Part shown: piece by piece, positions 370 to 63,096 of the stretch
Layout of the letters: each line of letters opens with the position of its first letter
Position numbering within the stretch: position 1 is the first letter of the stretch
Source of the DNA: an uncultured bacterium
GTDB lineage: Bacteria > Patescibacteriota > Saccharimonadia > Saccharimonadales > Saccharimonadaceae
NCBI GenBank assembly: GCA_938017895.1
Contig: CALIJI010000010.1
Coordinates: 15,045 to 79,044, forward strand
Direction: 5' to 3'
DNA: 64,000 nt
Program-made: the position numbers and the translations under genes
The notes under the pieces: generated by a model
The model's database searches: none
Told to the model about the DNA's origin: nothing
The model's input: only the letters and a program-made list of their open reading frames with translations

Positions 370-1597
370 TTTTTACCTCCGCTGTTATTTTTTTATCAAT
401 TGTCTCAATCAAAATCTGCTCACCAACTTCTATACTACCTCTCAAAATTGCATATCCTTGACGTAAGATTCTTTGTGGATTGAGGTTTTCTAGTAGTCGT
501 TTTTTTGCTAAAATATCATCTCGCCGCTGTTCGATTATAGATAATAATTTCGTTCGGATTTTATCTTTTTTAGAATTATTTTGTTTTTTTATTAATTCTA
601 TATTTTCTAAAATTCGTTCGCCTGCTCTTAATATCTTTGAATGCAAAAAACGAATCTCCGCCAACTTATCAGGCGACAAAATTTGTGCTACATTACTAGG
701 GGTCGAAGCTGCGTAATCTGCCGCCAGATCACATAAACTCTCATCAATTTCGTGGCCAATTCCAGTAATTATCGGCACACGAGAAGCAGCTACAGCGCGA
801 ACTAGACGTTCATCATTAAAAACCGCCAGATCATCAGTACTGCCACCACCCCGAATAATCGCAATCACTTCTGGCAATTCTTCACAAGAATTAAAATACT
901 CGATCGCCCTAATAATCTGATCCGCCGCTACCAAACCCTGAACTTGCGTATGTGCAACACGAATTTTAAGACCGCTCCATCGCTCATTGATAATCTTAAT
1001 AAAATCGGCAAACCCAGCAGCCTGCGTACTGGATATTATAGCAATTCGCTGTGGATTTTGCGGTAAATCACGCTTACGGTCTTTATCAAAAAGACCTTCA
1101 CGCGCCAGCTTCTGTTTTAATATGTCAAAAGATTTTTTAAGACTGCCTTCACCTTTCGGAATTATTTTTTCAACTGTTAGGCTAAATTTGCCCCAGTCGG
1201 TTAATTTAGGTCTAACCTCAGCTACAATTTTCATACCATCTTCAAGCGGAAATCGCATTTGCCAGACCGTCATAAAACAACTCAGGCTAGATCGCTCATC
1301 CTTGAGGTCAAAAAACACAAATTTCTTTTGATTGATTTTAAAACTAGAAACCTCACCCTCGATCAATACACTCGGAAAACTTTTTTCAAAAATATCATTC
1401 GAGACAGCTACAAAATCCGACACACTAAAAATAATTTCGCGATTTGCTGGATCTGTAGAATCGTATTTATTCAAAAGCGATATTTGGTCTTCAACTAAAT
1501 CATCAAACTCACTAAAATCAAAATTCATATGCTTTATTATAGCATAATCTAAAAAGTTTTTCTCGCCCCACATTAAAACAAAAAAAGACATCTGCAT
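353..1597 (-). CDS. xseA: Exodeoxyribonuclease VII large subunit
   Basis: OB-fold N-terminus (FSVSDFVA..IEGEVSSF) followed by a catalytic domain with a conserved GGGS..D region. The true start is probably the internal Met near 1528 (MNFDFSEF). Confidence 0.85.
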   Translation of the reverse strand: MQMSFFVLMWGEKNFLDYAIIKHMNFDFSEFDDLVEDQISLLNKYDSTDPANREIIFSVSDFVAVSNDIFEKSFPSVLIEGEVSSFKINQKKFVFFDLKDERSSLSCFMTVWQMRFPLEDGMKIVAEVRPKLTDWGKFSLTVEKIIPKGEGSLKKSFDILKQKLAREGLFDKDRKRDLPQNPQRIAIISSTQAAGFADFIKIINERWSGLKIRVAHTQVQGLVAADQIIRAIEYFNSCEELPEVIAIIRGGGSTDDLAVFNDERLVRAVAASRVPIITGIGHEIDESLCDLAADYAASTPSNVAQILSPDKLAEIRFLHSKILRAGERILENIELIKKQNNSKKDKIRTKLLSIIEQRRDDILAKKRLLENLNPQRILRQGYAILRGSIEVGEQILIETIDKKITAEVKNVKQN

Positions 1598-1659
1598 TTC
1601 GATAATACTTTAGCAAATGTCTTTTATGGATTATAAGTTATTTAACAAATATTTTTAAC

Positions 1660-3015
1660 TTACAAGTTAATTTTTGATTTTTTTCGATAAATGACTACAC
1701 CACTAGTTAATGCAATAAGAACAGCCGAGGCTAGTATAATCCAACCGAATACATCATTGTTATCTGATTTTTTAAATCCAGTTTGCGGAGTTTTTGGAGC
1801 TGCCTCACTGCGAGGAGCTTCAGCTGGCTTTTCAGTTTTAACTTCTTTTGCTGGTTCAGTTGGTTTTTGTTTAATAGCTTCAAGATCAGCTTGAGTTAAG
1901 ATACCCTTGATTGGCACTTCATGCACACCATTGCCTTGGAATATTACCGATCCGTCTTTTGCAGTTACCGTAACTTTATATTTGATATTCTTGAGTTTGC
2001 CATTAACTAGGTCAATATTAGCTTGAGCTGCTGGGTCAGGGTTTAGCTCTATTGGAAAATCAAACCCAGAAGAAGTCTTCAAATTCTGTTGTTCTAAAAC
2101 CTTAACATTACCGGCCAAGCCTTCACTATCAAAGCCAAATTTAAAACCAGTTCGCGGAGTTTCCATGATTAGCTTATCTGCATTAACCCTATTACTATCA
2201 TCAAAGATAAAATTCGATCCAGTATTTCGCTCAGCCTTATATTTACTAAATAGAACTGGCGAATCTTTCTCTAGTTCTATTTTGATATTAGCATCTTTCC
2301 AATTGCTTTTTGTCTCTATACCAAAGACTAAGTTTCCCCTTTTAGTATCAGAATTAAAACTAGAACTACTGCGCCATATTGTATCACTATATGAAAGTCT
2401 TTTAGTGTAACCATTAACTTTAATATGCTTGCTAAATACTTCTCGGTCATTTACTGCAGCAAAAGTACGAACATCATAATTGGGTGAAGAATCTACTAAT
2501 GGGTAACTAGCATGAATATTAGAAAAAATAAAACCTATTTTATTAACATTCTGACCTGCCACATCCTGATTAAAGGTAACCTTCCATTTACTCCAAGGCA
2601 CAGCATCTTCAACTTTATAAGCATCAAACTGGGCAATACCTGCGGCATCAGTTTTATATGAAGAATAAGTATGGCGACCCTTATTGGACTCAACAACTTT
2701 GGCAGTTGTTACAGTTTTGCCATTAGCTTTAATGTCGAAGTCTCGAATTTCACCCATACCAGCGATACCCTTTTGGTAAATAAAGAAGTAGTCACCAGGA
2801 TTGACTGTTTCCTGAATATCAAAGTCCATTCCAAAACTATACCAGCGATCATCGACCGCAACCTTATCTACTTTAGGGTCAGCTTTAAGCTGAATATTAG
2901 GTGAGGTTAAAATCTTTGTGAGCTGTTTTGGTGTATCAGCAAAAGCTGGTCGCACCAAAGCTCCACCAGTAATCGCAATCGCCAAAATTGCTGCGATCTT
3001 AATTTTATATTTCAT
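1660..3015 (-). CDS. Secreted surface protein with a sortase-like C-terminal sorting signal (PQTG, TM helix, basic tail)
   Basis: N-terminal signal peptide MKYKIKIAAILAIAITGGALVRPAFA. C-terminus KTPQTGFKK..WIILASAVLIALTSGVVIYRKKSK. Strong SD (AAAAGGAG) upstream. Confidence 0.5.
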   Translation of the reverse strand: MKYKIKIAAILAIAITGGALVRPAFADTPKQLTKILTSPNIQLKADPKVDKVAVDDRWYSFGMDFDIQETVNPGDYFFIYQKGIAGMGEIRDFDIKANGKTVTTAKVVESNKGRHTYSSYKTDAAGIAQFDAYKVEDAVPWSKWKVTFNQDVAGQNVNKIGFIFSNIHASYPLVDSSPNYDVRTFAAVNDREVFSKHIKVNGYTKRLSYSDTIWRSSSSFNSDTKRGNLVFGIETKSNWKDANIKIELEKDSPVLFSKYKAERNTGSNFIFDDSNRVNADKLIMETPRTGFKFGFDSEGLAGNVKVLEQQNLKTSSGFDFPIELNPDPAAQANIDLVNGKLKNIKYKVTVTAKDGSVIFQGNGVHEVPIKGILTQADLEAIKQKPTEPAKEVKTEKPAEAPRSEAAPKTPQTGFKKSDNNDVFGWIILASAVLIALTSGVVIYRKKSKINL

Positions 3016-3065
3016 TCTTCTCCTTTTCTACCAATAAAGGTGAATATTAACTCGTTTATGTTTAT

Positions 3066-3096
3066 ATTCTACCCCCCCCCCTGTATATTTTGTCAA
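3066..3096 (-). promoter_or_regulatory. Candidate promoter TTGACA-N9-G10-TAGAAT (19-bp spacer containing a G10 homopolymer) for the 1660-3015 surface protein gene
   Basis: On the minus strand there is a perfect -35 TTGACA (3091-3096), a G10 tract (C10 on the plus strand, 3072-3081) and a -10 TAGAAT (3066-3071), about 50 nt upstream of the SD/ATG. Confidence 0.55.
3072..3081. repeat. Homopolymeric C10/G10 tract
   Basis: Ten consecutive C residues in a ~35% GC genome, lying in a divergent intergenic region. Confidence 0.9.
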
Positions 3097-3121
3097 GTAT
3101 GTTCTTAAAATCAGTTAAATC

Positions 3122-3139
3122 TGCTATAATAAAATAATG
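3122..3139 (+). promoter_or_regulatory. Extended -10 promoter (TGcTATAAT) with the ATG 6 nt downstream, giving a leaderless transcript for the 3137 gene
   Basis: TGnTATAAT at 3122-3130 and the start codon at 3137, with no SD. Confidence 0.45.
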
Positions 3140-4366
3140 AAAATTGCAATCTTGGGCAGGCAGCCCGCCATTGGAATCGCTGAACTAGAAAGTGTTTTTG
3201 GTGGTGAAAAAATCCGTGTTTTAAATCGTGAGGTGGCTTTAGTAGACTCCACTAAGCTTAATGTTTCTCATTTTGGTAGTATTTTAAAAACCGGTGAGAT
3301 AGTTCATGAGATAGAGTCAACCGATTGGCATAAGATAAAACCGATTGTTCTGGAAAAAGTTCTAGACGACGCCAAAAAAGCAAATGGTAAAATCACGATG
3401 GGAATTTCAACTTACGGAGTCAGGACTTCCCCAAGAGAAATCTCAGACCTATTATCAAAAATAAAACAAAGCGCCAAAAAAGCTAGTATATCAATACGTA
3501 TAATCGACGGGCGCAAATTATCACTCTCTACTGCAATTTCGCACAACAACAAATTAGGGCTAAGCGATAAAAAACGAGAGATTATAATCGCAAGCTCCAA
3601 AAAGACGACCTTTATTGCTTTAAGCGAAGGTTCACAAAATATTTCTGCCTACGCCCGACGAGATCGAAACCGTCCACGACGCGACGCTTTTGTCGGGATG
3701 TTGCCGCCAAAATTAGCCCAGACAATGATCAATCTTGGCGCTGGCGAAAACCAACCACAGATAAAATTAACAAACAGCCCTACAAAAAATATAGACACTC
3801 CAAAACTACTTGATCCTTTTTGTGGCACCGGCACAGTTCTTCAAGAGGCAACCCTAAAAGGTTTTGAAGTTTTCGGAACAGATTTAAGCGACAAAATGAT
3901 TGATTTCTCGCAAGAAAATCTAGATTGGTTTGAGCAAGAATTTAGGCCACATGGCAAAATTGGCAAAATATATCAAGCTGATGCAACTCATGAAAAGTGG
4001 GATTTCGCGCCAAAACTTTCAACTGTAGTGTGCGAGACCTATCTTGGACAGCCCTTTTCTGCACCGCCATCACCAAAGAAGCTCACTGAAGTGCGCGAAA
4101 ACTGTAATCGTATAATCTCGAATTTCTTGAAAAATCTAGCCCGTCAAATTCAAGAAGGCACCCAAATTTGTATTGCTGTTCCAGCTTGGAAAACCCAAAA
4201 TGGCAATTTTTCTCACCTTCCGCTTGTTGACTTTTTGGAGGAACTCGGCTATAATAGGAGGGAATTTATGCGCGTTAAACCACAAGATTTAATATATTAT
4301 CGCGAAAATCAAGTTGTGGCGCGTGAATTATTAGTACTAATAAGGAGTAAAAATGTCAAAAGTTAA
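3137..4366 (+). CDS. SAM-dependent methyltransferase, UPF0020/Trm11-like (putative RNA m2G methyltransferase)
   Basis: Motif I DPFCGTGT, an upstream MLPPKLAQTMINLG motif, and an N-terminal domain consistent with a THUMP-like fold. Confidence 0.55.
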   Translation: MKIAILGRQPAIGIAELESVFGGEKIRVLNREVALVDSTKLNVSHFGSILKTGEIVHEIESTDWHKIKPIVLEKVLDDAKKANGKITMGISTYGVRTSPREISDLLSKIKQSAKKASISIRIIDGRKLSLSTAISHNNKLGLSDKKREIIIASSKKTTFIALSEGSQNISAYARRDRNRPRRDAFVGMLPPKLAQTMINLGAGENQPQIKLTNSPTKNIDTPKLLDPFCGTGTVLQEATLKGFEVFGTDLSDKMIDFSQENLDWFEQEFRPHGKIGKIYQADATHEKWDFAPKLSTVVCETYLGQPFSAPPSPKKLTEVRENCNRIISNFLKNLARQIQEGTQICIAVPAWKTQNGNFSHLPLVDFLEELGYNRREFMRVKPQDLIYYRENQVVARELLVLIRSKNVKS

Positions 4367-42046: not shown

Positions 42047-43474
42047 CTATTTCTTCAAGAATTTAGATTTTATCTGTTCAATTTTTGAAGTAATCTTGCT
42101 TTTAATTTCTCCTGCTGACTCAGTTGCAGTCTTCAATTCTTGACGACTTCGCATGTAATATGCTATTCCACTAGTAAGTGCCATAACAGCAATAACCATT
42201 GCGGCAGCTTCAGCTGGACCAGTTTGTGGAAGTTCACCTGGAACTTGCGCACATTTTTTATCATTAGCATTTAAATGCTCTAATCCTGGAATTTTACATT
42301 TTTCAATTCCACCATCTTTACAATTTGGATCACCTTTTTTGAGGTGAGTTTTTCCAGGGATTGGACAAGGATCTTCTCGTTCTTTCGGTGAACAATCTTT
42401 TTGAACAGTAACAGTTGCTGTGTCTTGTTTTGCACCATTTAGAGTGTGAATTTGTCCAACATTCTGAATATTATTTACACCACAAGCTAGTTTAGAAGAA
42501 TCTACTTCTGCAGTAAATACTATATACGCTTCAGTACCTACTCCATAGTTACCAATGTTAATTCCTTTAGAGAATAAATCATCATTTATACTTTTACCGC
42601 TTGGATTGTTAGCGTTGAACAATTTTGTTGTCCCCGCAATATATTTCATGCCTGCTGGTAAAACATCTTTTAGTTGCACATTATTTTGCCAAGTTGTTCC
42701 TAGGTTCTTGTATGTAATTTTGTAGTCAACTTTTTCACCCAAATTAGCTTTTTTAGTTTTAGACCAGTTATTTTTACCATGATCAGATACAGTTTTATTT
42801 ACGCTAAAGTCTGTAAAATCAGCTTTAAATCGATAAGTCACATAACCAGAATATTCTGTACAACCAGGAACAATTCCATTTAAATCACTATAGCCTAGCA
42901 GCGCACCTTCAGAAAAAATCTTTGAAGGAAGTTTTTTACCATTTATCGCACCGTTACTATAAACAGTTGCTGAATCCGGTACATACTTCAAAGCAACATC
43001 ACGCTCCGGAGAGCTTACTGTTACATGATCCCAAACTGCACTTGGACTTGCGTTCGAAGCAGAAATCGTAGATGTAATATCAACATTCTGACCCTTACGA
43101 ATAATTGAAGGCATTTTGGCAAGCATTTTTACGTCCCTTGCGATACCTTTATGGCCATGCTCTGCAGTATTTAATGAAGAGCTAGCATTGTTATGGAAGA
43201 AAGTATAAACTTCATATTCCTTCCCTGGTACAATTTTTGCGCTATCAACATAACCAGTCTGGCCAACTTCCTTGATTCTGACAAAGTTACGTTCGTCACC
43301 GACCTTAGGATTATTGGTCATCGAGTTGAATGTTACATAGTCTGCTGGCTTCTCACCAACAAAAGTTTTTCGCTCAGGTCCATAAGCAAAGACGCTTTGG
43401 ATAGATAACGATGTGGCAACTAGGATTGCGCCAAGCGCAAGTCCTAGTTTTTTAATGTTTATATTATTTAGCAT
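42047..43474 (-). CDS. Secreted surface protein with an LPQTG sortase sorting signal and a DUF11/CARDB-like domain
   Basis: Signal peptide, a Cys-rich stalk and a C-terminal LPQTG + TM + basic tail. Confidence 0.65.
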   Translation of the reverse strand: MLNNINIKKLGLALGAILVATSLSIQSVFAYGPERKTFVGEKPADYVTFNSMTNNPKVGDERNFVRIKEVGQTGYVDSAKIVPGKEYEVYTFFHNNASSSLNTAEHGHKGIARDVKMLAKMPSIIRKGQNVDITSTISASNASPSAVWDHVTVSSPERDVALKYVPDSATVYSNGAINGKKLPSKIFSEGALLGYSDLNGIVPGCTEYSGYVTYRFKADFTDFSVNKTVSDHGKNNWSKTKKANLGEKVDYKITYKNLGTTWQNNVQLKDVLPAGMKYIAGTTKLFNANNPSGKSINDDLFSKGINIGNYGVGTEAYIVFTAEVDSSKLACGVNNIQNVGQIHTLNGAKQDTATVTVQKDCSPKEREDPCPIPGKTHLKKGDPNCKDGGIEKCKIPGLEHLNANDKKCAQVPGELPQTGPAEAAAMVIAVMALTSGIAYYMRSRQELKTATESAGEIKSKITSKIEQIKSKFLKK

Positions 43475-43492: not shown

Positions 43493-45832
43493 TTAATTTG
43501 TTGGAGGTAAATCTACTACTGTTCCATCCGCAAGAGTTACTCTATTTGGATTTTGAATATTTTCCGCGGCCTTATCTGTTTCAGCTTGGCGTGCTGCAGC
43601 TTCTTGATTCTGGCGATCAATTTCAGCTGATTGACCTGCTACGCCATCATCTTGCTGTTCAAGACTCGGATTGTATTGATTTTCAGCCTTCTGGCCATTG
43701 TAAGTATTTCCGTAGTCAACCCCAAGGTTTGGTGTCTCTTGGCCAATTTGAGGAGCCGCCTTATAGGTGTAGTCCAGCTCAGAAGAACGAGTCGAGTTAT
43801 CTTCCCTAAAATCACCCTTATCCATTGGCGTGACTTCATCTCCAGCTTTTTGCTTGCTCCAGTCTTTCTTCTCAAGGTCTTTTGGCGTATCTGGAGTTGG
43901 AGGTGGAGTTTCTTCTCCGGGGTTATTTGGTTTATCTGGGGTTGGAGGTGGAGTTTCTTCTCCGGGGTTATTTGGTCTATCTGGAGTTGGAGTATTCGGT
44001 GTAATTTGAATTTCACAACCTCGAGGAGCCCAAGAATTAAAGTTATGGCCAGTCTTTACCGTTACCCCCTGACTACAATTAGTTCGTTCATCATAAGACT
44101 TACCTTCTTTTAATGATCCATCTGCATTTTTAGATCGCAATTTAATTGAGCGCATTTTTCCGCCGATTCTCAAGTCTCTGGCATGAGCAAGTCGTTGCAT
44201 TCCATTAGAATCCTTAATAATATATTCAGAATCAAATATCCCTGGAATTTCAGTTTCTTCGCCAATAATAGCATTTTCAACAGCTTTCTTATAGAAATCC
44301 TGAACCTTTTTAAAGAGTGCTGGATCTTTTGTCATTTTATCGGCAATTTCATGGAGCTGATCATCAGTTATATCTCCATCACCATCATGATCCAAAAATT
44401 CTGGAATCAACCCTGCATGGTCAAGCTTAGTTAACATCATAATTGGATTAGTCGAAACTTCATTAGCTAAGAATTTTCGATAGTCATCCGTCGATAATCC
44501 TTCTCGACTGGCAGAAAAGTTTTCAAGATATTCCTTTTGTGGCTTCTCAGTTTCATAAATATCTTTATCCGCACTATATCCTTCAAGATTCTTTTCGGCG
44601 TCCTTATTATTTTCTAGGACATCCTTTATAGCACTATCATATTTACTCTTATCTTGATTCGACTGGTTATCATTGGTAACATGCTCGGTTCTAGGATTGT
44701 TATTACTAGATGAATCATATTCATTAGCACCAGTCGTTAATCTACCAATCATAAAACTGGCCCCAACTACAGCACTACCTAAGAGTACTTTTACGGCTTT
44801 TCTAGTTTTTGGATGTTCATCCAGGAACCTTCCGATCTTCTTTCCTAATTTTCCCCAATATTCTTTAGCTTTTTCTAGCTTTGACGGATCTTTATCTTCA
44901 TTGATTTCATTAGGCTCACCACGCTCTGGTTTCTCTATCGCCGAAATATAATCATTCATCAATTTATATCTAGGAGTATTTCTCTTATATAGGTCAGAAT
45001 TACCGATCTCGCCTTTAGCTCTATATTTCGATAGCTCATCAAAATACATTTCGGCAATTTCACGCAATTGATCTGGACTAGCGCCATTAAGCGCAGCTTT
45101 ATCGAATTGATCACTAATTTCATCAAGTTTAGATTGATCATCACTAACAAATTCTGCATTATTTTCTTTAGAGATTTTGATGTGGTTTTTTGAATTTTTA
45201 AGCTTTTCAAGGTTCTCTTTGTCGATTTTATAACTTTGAGTAACCTGTTTATTAATCTTTTCGTTTATATCTTCAGGCTCTGAATTGGTTACAGGCTCTG
45301 CATCAACTTTAGAGCCTGTGTCGTTTTTTGAAAATTCCACTTCGCTAACAGATTTACCGCCGTTGATGATGCCTTCAATATAGCTATCGATAATGTCAGC
45401 TCTTCCGCCGTATCCATTTTCTTTTTTCTTATTGAGAAGGGCATTTAGCATTTTTTCTCGACTTTCGACTATAGCTCTCGCAGCTTCGATTCGCTGTTTG
45501 ACTTGGTGATATTCTGTCATTGACATATTTTCGTCAAGGAGAGATTCCAATTTCGAAATTTCACTATTTTTGTCTCGAATTTCCATTGCATAGTTTTCCA
45601 TATGATCAACAGGCAATTTTTTTCGGAACTTTTCTTTGATGTTGTTTATATTGTCAAAGAACGCCTTATTTTGACTATCGTCATATCGAGACAAATCCTC
45701 CTTTTGCTGCGCAAGCTCTAATTGACGACGCATTAGCTCTTCCTGTTGTTGCCGCAACATCTCTTCTTGAAGAGCGACGTCGTCCCAAGCGCTATGCCTT
45801 TCGCCGGTAGGATTGAACTTATCTTTGTTCAT
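43493..45832 (-). CDS. Large single-pass membrane protein with a coiled-coil N-terminus, a calcium-binding loop and Pro-rich tandem repeats
   Basis: About 340 aa of cytoplasmic coiled coil, a TM helix (VKVLLGSAVVGASFMIG), the loop DHDGDGDITDD and the repeats PNNPGEETPPPTPD. Confidence 0.55.
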   Translation of the reverse strand: MNKDKFNPTGERHSAWDDVALQEEMLRQQQEELMRRQLELAQQKEDLSRYDDSQNKAFFDNINNIKEKFRKKLPVDHMENYAMEIRDKNSEISKLESLLDENMSMTEYHQVKQRIEAARAIVESREKMLNALLNKKKENGYGGRADIIDSYIEGIINGGKSVSEVEFSKNDTGSKVDAEPVTNSEPEDINEKINKQVTQSYKIDKENLEKLKNSKNHIKISKENNAEFVSDDQSKLDEISDQFDKAALNGASPDQLREIAEMYFDELSKYRAKGEIGNSDLYKRNTPRYKLMNDYISAIEKPERGEPNEINEDKDPSKLEKAKEYWGKLGKKIGRFLDEHPKTRKAVKVLLGSAVVGASFMIGRLTTGANEYDSSSNNNPRTEHVTNDNQSNQDKSKYDSAIKDVLENNKDAEKNLEGYSADKDIYETEKPQKEYLENFSASREGLSTDDYRKFLANEVSTNPIMMLTKLDHAGLIPEFLDHDGDGDITDDQLHEIADKMTKDPALFKKVQDFYKKAVENAIIGEETEIPGIFDSEYIIKDSNGMQRLAHARDLRIGGKMRSIKLRSKNADGSLKEGKSYDERTNCSQGVTVKTGHNFNSWAPRGCEIQITPNTPTPDRPNNPGEETPPPTPDKPNNPGEETPPPTPDTPKDLEKKDWSKQKAGDEVTPMDKGDFREDNSTRSSELDYTYKAAPQIGQETPNLGVDYGNTYNGQKAENQYNPSLEQQDDGVAGQSAEIDRQNQEAAARQAETDKAAENIQNPNRVTLADGTVVDLPPTN
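43891..44000. repeat. 48-bp tandem repeat (~2.3 copies) inside the 779-aa gene
   Basis: Near-identical direct repeat ..GTTGGAGGTGGAGTTTCTTCTCCGGGGTTATTTGGT.. encoding 16-aa units. Confidence 0.8.
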
Positions 45833-61814: not shown

Positions 61815-62306
61815 CTATTTCATATTTTCGTAGTAGTCTATAATCTGCCGACTCAAACCTTTTCGGAATTTCAGATACTCTGCATTATCAGTATTCCCAG
61901 TTGACCTATTTCCTCTATTAAAAACGGTTAGTACTAAAGGAGTTTCCCCCCTATCAGTTGGTTGGCCGATAGTAAGACCTTTATATGGGTTAAAATCTTC
62001 ATCCTTATCACTCATATCAATAAGATCTTCTAGTTGTGCTTTACCTTCTTTGTTAGTTTTAACCAACCCCATAAAGCCAGCGTAAGTAACAATATAATTG
62101 CCATTATCTAGTTTTAGCATAGATGAAATTGGTTCTTCTCTAGTATTTTTAGCATAGCTTCCCTCATTAATAAGCCTTTGCTGTAAAGTGGCTCTATAGG
62201 CATCGGCTGTAGCAACAAAACTTCTTTCCTCATAGCCATTCCTAAGATCATCGACAAGATTATCGAGGCTTGTTCCTGTTTTATCGTACGTTAAGTTATT
62301 AAACAC
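61815..62306 (-). CDS. Hypothetical protein
   Basis: 163-aa ORF whose track start is a GTG. An out-of-frame 23-aa mini-ORF with a good SD overlaps it upstream, so the start is ambiguous. Confidence 0.45.
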   Translation of the reverse strand: MFNNLTYDKTGTSLDNLVDDLRNGYEERSFVATADAYRATLQQRLINEGSYAKNTREEPISSMLKLDNGNYIVTYAGFMGLVKTNKEGKAQLEDLIDMSDKDEDFNPYKGLTIGQPTDRGETPLVLTVFNRGNRSTGNTDNAEYLKFRKGLSRQIIDYYENMK

Positions 62307-62398
62307 ATCATTCTTTTTTCTAAATACTCTGGCTGAGTATTGAACGAATTAAAATTCTTCATATTTATCCTTTAAAAAATATTAAAAATCGCATTTTG

Positions 62399-62429
62399 AT
62401 TATACCCCCCCCCCGAACAGTTTTGTCAA
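62399..62429 (-). promoter_or_regulatory. Candidate promoter TTGACA-N9-G10-TATAAT (19-bp spacer containing a G10 homopolymer)
   Basis: On the minus strand there is a perfect -35 (62424-62429), a G10 tract (C10 at 62405-62414) and a perfect -10 TATAAT (62399-62404). Confidence 0.55.
62405..62414. repeat. Homopolymeric C10/G10 tract
   Basis: Ten consecutive C residues. Confidence 0.9.
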
Positions 62430-62491
62430 GTTTTAGCTTTAGAGTTTTTTGAAGGTTGAATTTTTAAATTTTTCATCGTAAAATAGAATTA

Positions 62492-62647
62492 ATGACTACT
62501 GCAATAAACAATAACATACCAAAAACTTTATTAGCAGAATTTTCGAAAATCTTTCATAAGCCTAAAATTCTAGTCGGAAAGCCTCAAGAATCCGTAATTT
62601 ATAACTACTTTAATTTTATAAAAAAAGGCGCTAAAAGTTTAGTATGA
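62492..62647 (+). CDS. Small 51-aa ORF translationally coupled to the downstream HExxH gene
   Basis: Its stop TGA overlaps the next ATG as ATGA. No homology is recognizable, and it is below the ORF-track cutoff. Confidence 0.3.
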   Translation: MTTAINNNIPKTLLAEFSKIFHKPKILVGKPQESVIYNYFNFIKKGAKSLV

Positions 62648-63096
62648 ATATAGATTTTGTTAAAACTTTGCGCAAAGATTTTCCGCAATTTATCTTTAAA
62701 GAAAATGATGATTTTCATTGGTCGAAACAAAAAAACACAATTTTCTTCAATCTAGAATCTACCAATTTTCATCTATTAATTCTTCACGAGCTAGCTCATG
62801 CGCTACTAGGCCATGAAACTTTTAATCTTGATATAGAGTTACTCCAAATGGAGATGGAAGCTTGGGAATTTGCTAAGAATAACCTTGCTACACAATACGG
62901 AATCTGCTTTGACTCAAATATATCCGAACGAAAGCTCGACACTTACCGAGACTGGATCCATAAACGCAGCTTATGCCCAAATTGTACAGTGAACGGATTT
63001 CAAAAAAGCGATCTATCTTATAAATGTCCCGCATGTGGAACAACTTGGACTGTAAATGACTCCCGATTCAAAAGTCTACGACGAGTCAAAAAATAG
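62644..63096 (+). CDS. HExxH zinc-metallopeptidase-like protein (ImmA/IrrE, DUF955-like) with a C-terminal zinc ribbon
   Basis: Motif ILHELAHALLGHE and a C-terminal CPNC..CPAC. Confidence 0.55.
   Translation: MNIDFVKTLRKDFPQFIFKENDDFHWSKQKNTIFFNLESTNFHLLILHELAHALLGHETFNLDIELLQMEMEAWEFAKNNLATQYGICFDSNISERKLDTYRDWIHKRSLCPNCTVNGFQKSDLSYKCPACGTTWTVNDSRFKSLRRVKK

Follow-up and report, generated by a model that had tools for sequence, protein, structure and literature searches.

The window (the whole 64-kb stretch of DNA that we analyzed) contains two divergent intergenic regions in which a run of ten G residues lies on the minus strand between a −35 and a −10 hexamer. At the first of these (locus 1), the minus strand reads TTGACA AAATATACA GGGGGGGGGG TAGAAT from 3096 to 3066. 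The −35 hexamer TTGACA (3091..3096), read directly and kept in all orthologous loci, is followed by a non-repeat spacer part of 9 nt (AAATATACA, 3082..3090; 8 or 10 nt in some relatives), the G10 homopolymer that forms the hypervariable element (3072..3081; C10 on the plus strand), and the −10 hexamer TAGAAT (3066..3071; TAAAAT in two relatives), giving a spacer of 19 bp. Direct reading of the minus strand reproduces exactly the arrangement described by the original prediction. The −10 hexamer is separated by 51 nt from the start codon of a 451-codon ORF (3015..1660, minus strand), with a Shine-Dalgarno sequence in between (AAGGAG, 3020..3025, minus strand, 4 nt 5′ of the ATG at 3015), and transcription is predicted to start near 3059. 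The intergenic region measures 121 bp and is bordered by divergent genes. The opposite neighbor is a 409-aa methyltransferase (3137-4366, plus strand). Its upstream sequence suggests a leaderless or very-short-leader mRNA, because TATAAT lies just 8 nt before the ATG (3125-3137, plus strand) and there is no obvious Shine-Dalgarno sequence.

The 451-aa product of the minus-strand gene (1660..3015) consists of a signal peptide, two IgG-like MSCRAMM-type domains, a Pro/Glu/Lys-rich stalk, and a sorting signal. The Sec signal peptide (N-terminus MKYKIKIAAILAIAITGGALVRPAFA-DT, read directly) is conserved in the family, and the ligand-binding-type region is made up of two tandem IgG-like domains of the N2-N3 type. 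The claim that this gene encodes an exported protein with a PQTG sorting signal held up, as the C-terminus has the tripartite form with TPQTG, a 10-residue linker, the hydrophobic stretch WIILASAVLIALTSGVVIY, and the basic tail RKKSK. Across 16 family members (APNTG/TPQTG), P410, T412, and G413 are invariant or nearly so. The first position of the motif is not Leu, making it non-canonical. Compared with the MSCRAMMs SdrD, ClfA/B, FnBPA, SdrG, and Cna, the protein carries TPQTG/APNTG instead of LPXTG, and its identity to them is just 10-19%. It gave no Pfam matches, and its family is tiny, with 16 representatives at 50% identity among 1.84 billion. We conclude that the product is an exported, putative cell-wall-anchored MSCRAMM-like adhesin with a family-conserved xPxTG signal. 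A search for a cognate sortase found no ORF with a TLxTC-type motif within the 64-kb window. The window does contain a second protein with PQTG, a transmembrane segment, and a basic tail (42047-43474, minus strand, 475 aa, with a DUF11 domain), next to a 779-aa neighbor without a Pfam match (43493-45832, minus strand); a homopolymer is absent from the promoters of both.

The second locus (locus 2), which had been predicted to share this architecture, indeed does so, with TATAAT as its −10 hexamer. Here, the minus strand reads TTGACA AAACTGTTC GGGGGGGGGG TATAAT from 62429 to 62399, with the −35 hexamer at 62424..62429, the 9-nt spacer prefix AAACTGTTC at 62415..62423, the G10 homopolymer at 62405..62414, and the −10 hexamer at 62399..62404, again giving a spacer of 19 bp. 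The start codon follows 37 nt after the −10 hexamer, with a Shine-Dalgarno sequence between them, the divergent intergenic region measures 129 bp, and the predicted transcription start lies near 62392. The gene (61815..62362, minus strand) belongs to a family of approximately 180 aa and is represented in the window by a 23-codon ORF (ATG at 62362) and a 163-codon ORF (GTG at 62306). We place the full-length start at 62362 because the N-terminus MKNFNSFNTQPE is conserved in all homologs of the protein (17 out of 17). The ORF itself contains two short runs on the minus strand, A6 (62314..62319) and G6 (61946..61951). The reading frame of the conserved 19-aa N-terminus depends on the length of the A run, with A6 giving 163 aa and A7, found in three relatives (L133-135), restoring a single 182-aa frame. 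In the locus-2 product of another relative (P0023), a protein-level reading shows a +1 frameshift from the G6 run onward and truncation to 124 aa. A sister species has GAAGAAGAG in place of the A run. The 182-aa protein had no match in Pfam, PHROG, or PADLOC, and its AF2 model has a pLDDT of 36. On the plus strand of the divergent side, an A7 run (62620-62626) lies at the end of a 51-aa ORF (62492-62647), just before a 150-aa gene (62644-63096) with a HEXXH metalloprotease-like/zinc-ribbon product; with A6, as in L010 and L011, the upstream ORF is shortened to 49 aa and overlaps the 150-aa gene differently.

At both loci, a simple repeat thus lies between recognizable −35 and −10 hexamers, 5′ of a gene. 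The two C10 runs of the plus strand are the sole G/C homopolymers longer than 6 nt in the 64 kb; besides them, we found one C6 run, and the rest are 5 nt or shorter. The earlier view of a C10 run as very unusual in this DNA stands on this count, and the base composition given with it (around 35% GC) needs correction to 36.8% G+C. The full 31-nt pattern, with 2 mismatches allowed, occurs exactly twice in the window and in none of 100 dinucleotide-preserving shuffles. Both intergenic regions are short (121 and 129 bp) and divergent, so that the downstream genes must each be served by a separate promoter within them. Rfam and tRNA scans of the window identified only three tRNAs and nothing near either locus. 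The window as a whole is strongly strand-asymmetric. Among the ORFs that reach 150 aa or more, the minus strand carries 41 out of 49, and the plus strand has 13,723 C versus 9,836 G. Judged from its sequence, the source organism is a human-oral member of the Saccharibacteria (TM7). Identical or near-identical window proteins are confined to contigs from human oral metagenomes, and the genes are syntenic with, and 33-63% identical at the protein level to, loci in Candidatus Saccharibacteria MAGs (L115, including def, fmt, and IF-2, and L040). The ORFs read through with the standard code.

We scanned the whole window for pairs of hexamers with spacers of 13-23 bp and at least 11 out of 12 matching positions. 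These near-consensus pairs peak at a spacer of 17 bp (8 out of 20), and two perfect TTGACA-17-TATAAT promoters lie directly 5′ of genes (63479 and 46543). The only such pairs with a 19-bp spacer are the two poly-G loci. For locus 1 in the G10 state, the best candidate for an alternative −35 at 17 bp from the −10 is GACAAA, which matches 2 out of 6 positions and was rejected. Because the promoters of the window peak at 17 bp and no alternative −35 is present at 17 bp from the −10, we predict that G10 (19 bp) is a weak or OFF state and that G8 is the full-ON state. This prediction rests on established sigma-70 behavior and on the precedents of tp0126 and porA. A point against it is that the RNA polymerase and promoters of Saccharibacteria have not been characterized experimentally.

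To compare the tracts among relatives, we used, for locus 1, contigs encoding five known variants of the adhesin protein (83-100% identity). The hexamers and 60 nt on each side are almost invariant across these orthologs, and the differences are found mainly at the tract. The window and two assemblies (L002 and L003) have a 9-nt prefix with G10 (19 bp). A 17-bp spacer is formed by 9 nt with G8 in L004 and L005, by 10 nt with G7 in L006, where one G has turned into A, and by 8 nt with G9 in L007, and L008 combines 8 nt with G8 (16 bp). Prefix length and G-run length co-vary. A spacer of 17 bp is present in 4 out of 6 distinct intact-gene assemblies, and since it is built in three different ways, the pattern is one that selection on the length of the spacer, rather than on its sequence, would produce.

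For locus 2, we compared contigs that share the identical neighboring 150-aa protein. The tract is G10 in the window and in four assemblies (L009 and L133-135), G8 (17 bp) in L010, and G12 (21 bp) in L011. The latter two have no mismatches to each other over 800 nt on each side of the tract, so that G8 and G12 alleles between these flanks (1.6 kb) imply at least two to four length changes over a time in which no substitution arose. In a 370-nt alignment of these contigs with the window, the only differences are the G tract and one T7/T6 run, which is the A7/A6 run at the end of the 51-aa ORF. The loss of 2 G that the original prediction had named as the route to 17 bp is therefore found in nature, in the G8 alleles at locus 1 (L004 and L005) and locus 2 (L010), and the related genomes, whose tracts differ in length as the original prediction had expected, add G12, G9, and G7 alleles with identical or nearly identical flanks. 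In these consensus assemblies, several of them at low coverage (2.5-10x), the length of the repeat is hypervariable relative to the flanking sequence among close relatives at both loci. At locus 2, G10 is the majority allele, both in the assemblies of the window lineage (5 out of 7) and in the samples of a sister species with 67% protein identity (7 out of 8), where the promoter reads TTGACC-AAACTGTTC-G10-TATAAT in seven samples and has G9 in one. One contig (L012, 2.5x coverage) ends at its position 1 inside the locus-2 C tract, orthologous to window position ~62407. This is what an assembler failing to resolve the run would give and is a weak sign of heterogeneity. The sister species also has a third poly-G promoter, 5′ of a DUF4352 protein, with the sequence TTGACA-TTTC-G10 (L188, 1374) or G9 (L189, 231) followed by TATAAT. 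The spacer of this promoter is just 14 or 13 bp, and its ON state would need approximately G13, or else the −35 would be unused.

In addition, we identified a sister lineage without the tract, recognizable by its methyltransferase (variants P0008 and P0009) and represented by at least nine short-read assemblies (L182-L187 and L198-L200). The locus-1 spacer of this lineage is 13 nt long (AACTGTACAGAGG), with the homopolymer lost (decayed to CAGAGG), and is identical in all nine assemblies. Its presence in at least nine Illumina assemblies rules out a long-read error, and its invariance indicates that the length variability belongs to the homopolymer and not to a noisy assembly of the region. 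The adhesin gene of this lineage, orthologous to 1597-3140 of the window, is a pseudogene with a fragmented ORF. Its ATG has changed to ATA in 6 out of 9 assemblies (L182, L184, L187, and L198-L200), and in the alignment, nothing corresponds to query positions 1001-1350 of the window gene (~350 bp). The divergent methyltransferase is intact and >90% conserved. Because the tract was lost as the adhesin decayed and the methyltransferase stayed intact, we consider the tract to go with the adhesin and not with the methyltransferase. The pseudogene further shows that cells can do without the adhesin, which is typical of contingency genes.

A scan of metagenome contigs with degenerate patterns for both loci returned 46 matches, of which 42 are unrelated promoters and 4 are BNJU01 contigs. 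The locus-1 spacer of BNJU01 is the same as in the short-read assemblies of the tract-less lineage, and BNJU01, a public assembly of the same lineage, was probably made from long reads without polishing, so that its homopolymer lengths are not to be trusted. We left its contigs (L138, L140, L167, and L171) out of the tract lengths and pseudogene calls because even S1 and IF-2 are split by frameshifts in them.

Outside this lineage, a homolog of the adhesin in another Saccharibacteria species (P0027, 36% identity) has the promoter TTGACT-C-A15-TGA-TACAAT (L196/L197, 3923-3953). Here, a 15-nt poly-A tract occupies most of a 19-bp spacer that also provides an extended −10 TG, placing the same adhesin family under a different homopolymer. 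We also scanned 185,579 species genomes for TTGACA-N7-13-G8-TANAAT, which yielded at least 120 loci in a search biased by its requirement for G≥8; a rough chance expectation under uniform base composition is ~30 matches for the whole collection. The matches listed (L013-L132) belong mostly to host-associated Clostridia/Lachnospiraceae, Treponema (many genomes), Streptococcus, and other Bacilli, and include three Saccharibacteria and one Parcubacteria MAG. Among these listed matches, a signal-peptide or lipoprotein-like N-terminus, called by a crude heuristic, was present in 67 out of 99 downstream ORFs, compared with 201 out of 755 ORFs that served as controls at these loci (odds ratio 5.8, p=3e-15). 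The spacers of the listed matches have their mode at 19 bp with a dip at 17 bp, and runs of 9 G are the most frequent irrespective of how long the prefix is. One of the Saccharibacteria MAGs (L040) has a G14 promoter 5′ of a 470-aa protein ending in SPDTG, a transmembrane segment, and a basic tail. Hence, the promoter design recurs for surface proteins within the phylum and well beyond it.

Overall, we consider it likely, from the sequence comparisons above, that the poly-G tracts act as slipped-strand promoter switches, either on/off or graded, of the adhesin and of the locus-2 gene. We propose that each G10 run is a hypermutable tract in the spacer of a canonical sigma-70-type promoter, in which slipped-strand mispairing during replication would add or remove G residues. 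Each gain or loss would alter how far apart the −35 and −10 hexamers lie and how they are rotated relative to each other, and this altered geometry would in turn change the binding of RNA polymerase. A spacer of 17 bp (G8 here) would allow full expression, 16 or 18 bp would be intermediate, and 19 bp or more, as with G10 in the window, would give weak expression or none. At locus 1, the population would then hold cells that display the adhesin alongside cells that do not, and at locus 2, the same promoter switch would act on a small protein that may additionally be subject to its frameshift-prone A and G coding runs. Slippage as the mechanism, reversibility within a clone, the lengths that correspond to ON, and the biological role are inferred here.

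The recurrence of the 19-bp state does not fit easily. This length is the commonest one, occurring at both window loci, in 7 out of 8 sister-species samples, with the A15 run of P0027, and most often among the matches listed from the biased genome scan. If the tract were very unstable, one might anticipate a wider spread of lengths than the G10 majority at locus 2, and this counts against a switch. Perhaps 19 bp is not OFF in the source organism, and the G residues directly 5′ of the −10, including a G at −14, could allow a degree of activity that is independent of the −35. In the simplest reading, OFF or low expression would be the default, with the tract close to a length of G9-G10 at which mutational gains and losses balance, as is the case for the poly-G tracts of Campylobacter. 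A bolder reading within the switch model is that the recurrent 19-bp state is a selected, poised low-expression setting or reflects a shifted optimum for homopolymer spacers.

The main rival to a switch is a stable strain polymorphism, in which the tract mutates faster than ordinary sequence and is fixed within each clone, serving as an evolutionary tuning knob of promoter strength rather than for phase variation. The recurrence of G10 in many independent samples at locus 2 fits this explanation, as does the fact that our evidence comes from consensus assemblies. We nevertheless consider it unlikely, given that G8 and G12 occur between flanks without a mismatch in 1.6 kb and that three prefix-plus-tract combinations all reach 17 bp at locus 1. 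To our knowledge, homopolymers of at least 8 G have been experimentally unstable in every organism tested. In T. pallidum, for instance, 76% of 17 poly-G tracts vary within isolates (PMC7864442). If the tracts instead had a fixed regulatory or structural role, for example as a regulator site or as an A-form/G-rich structure that determines promoter geometry, so that the signal would not lie in their exact length, or if 19 bp were the optimum for homopolymer spacers, then the prevalence of 19 bp at the window loci, in the sister species, and in the A15 promoter of P0027 would be explained, together with the mode of 19 and dip at 17 among the matches listed from the biased genome scan. The length of the tract is not conserved, though, ranging from G7 to G12, four of the six intact locus-1 assemblies have 17 bp, and the tract was lost as the gene decayed. 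Moreover, G runs and A runs cause opposite helical deviations, so a shifted optimum shared by both is physically unlikely. Altogether, a fixed element seems to us improbable.

Even less probable are two further explanations. Errors of Illumina sequencing or of the assemblers could in principle produce apparent length differences, since errors are frequent in long G runs, coverage is low for some contigs (such as L012 at 2.5x, which ends inside the tract), and the BNJU01 contigs are frameshifted even in essential genes. Such errors would hardly place the runs in an exact promoter context at two loci, for which the shuffles gave no match, and the observed differences of 2-4 nt, from different assemblers and samples, exceed typical errors. 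Prefix substitutions also co-vary with tract length, and the identical spacer in at least nine tract-less assemblies shows that the region is not noisy. We regard an artifact as very improbable for these reasons. The same holds for the idea that the tracts control the divergent neighbors, that is, the methyltransferase at locus 1 and the 51-aa and 150-aa ORFs (62492-63096) at locus 2. Both tracts do lie between divergent genes, and the start codons on the other side are 56 and 78 bp away, but the hexamers flanking them face the minus-strand genes, and candidate promoters for the plus strand are found elsewhere (TTGAAT-17-TAAAAT at 62456-62484, and TATAAT 8 nt before the ATG at 3137). In the lineage without the tract, moreover, the methyltransferase has stayed intact and conserved.

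Phase variation through simple repeats is known from several bacteria. In Mycoplasma hyorhinis, a host-dependent bacterium with a reduced genome, the promoters of the vlp lipoprotein genes carry a poly-A tract in the spacer. The likeness lies in the homopolymer within the spacer of surface-protein genes, and P0027 with its A15 run also has the poly-A tract; the base is A in vlp and G at the window loci, and the vlp proteins also vary in size through coding repeats. In Campylobacter jejuni, Haemophilus, and Helicobacter, phase variation is translational and depends on homopolymers in coding regions. This resembles the A6/A7 and G6 runs of the locus-2 ORF and the frame changes in the products of relatives, with the difference that the coding tracts of locus 2 are short (6-7 nt) and that this gene has a promoter tract as well. 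The slipped-strand promoter-spacer switch of porA and tp0126 is probably the type to which the mechanism belongs. In N. meningitidis porA, a poly-G tract lies between the −35 and −10 (as reviewed in PMC7864442), and as at locus 1, a G homopolymer sits in a sigma-70 spacer upstream of a surface-protein gene; slippage in porA, an experimentally established mechanism, changes transcription in several steps (PMC7864442). Differences from porA are that the host here belongs to the Saccharibacteria (Patescibacteria/CPR) instead of the proteobacteria, that the target is an MSCRAMM-like adhesin with a sortase signal instead of a porin, that the common allele is 2 bp above the optimum, and that the present case is known from sequence alone. 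In T. pallidum tp0126, which encodes an OmpW homolog, poly-G also lies between the hexamers, and a transcription optimum at a 17-nt spacer has been established experimentally (PMC7864442). Treponema tracts vary within and between isolates and target surface proteins (PMC7864442), which is a further likeness, whereas phylum and target class differ from those here. The tprE/G/J/L tracts differ in addition by overlapping the −10/TSS-proximal region and not setting a spacer.

Saccharibacteria are obligate epibionts, and little is known about how they recognize host bacteria or human surfaces and stay attached to them. Recent work on their attachment has focused on type IV pili, and additional adhesins that act at close range have been postulated (PMC11623550). 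In our literature search, we found no paper linking Saccharibacteria or Patescibacteria with slipped-strand phase variation. The case gains interest from the combination of an obligate-epibiont phylum with a minimal genome, an adhesin family without prior annotation, the existence of ON-like, OFF-like, and decayed alleles, and a second gene with several tracts. The wider scan suggests that promoters of this design are common in gut and oral Firmicutes, where they have received little study. Tentatively, we can extend the proposal to a possible general contingency system of Saccharibacteria, shared with host-associated Clostridia, spirochaetes, and streptococci, in which homopolymer-in-spacer promoters would preferentially control xPxTG adhesins and create epibiont subpopulations that differ in attachment or host range, with locus 2 as a combinatorial switch of three tracts (promoter G, coding A, and coding G). 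If the tracts are indeed switches, annotators and those who polish MAGs should be warned that homopolymer 'errors' can be biology. Natural alleles would also be at hand for comparing ON (G8) with OFF (G10-G12 or the tract-less pseudogene) states. The MSCRAMM-like adhesin family would be a variably displayed surface factor, and the tiny, repair-poor genomes of CPR bacteria would make use of a classic contingency-locus strategy.
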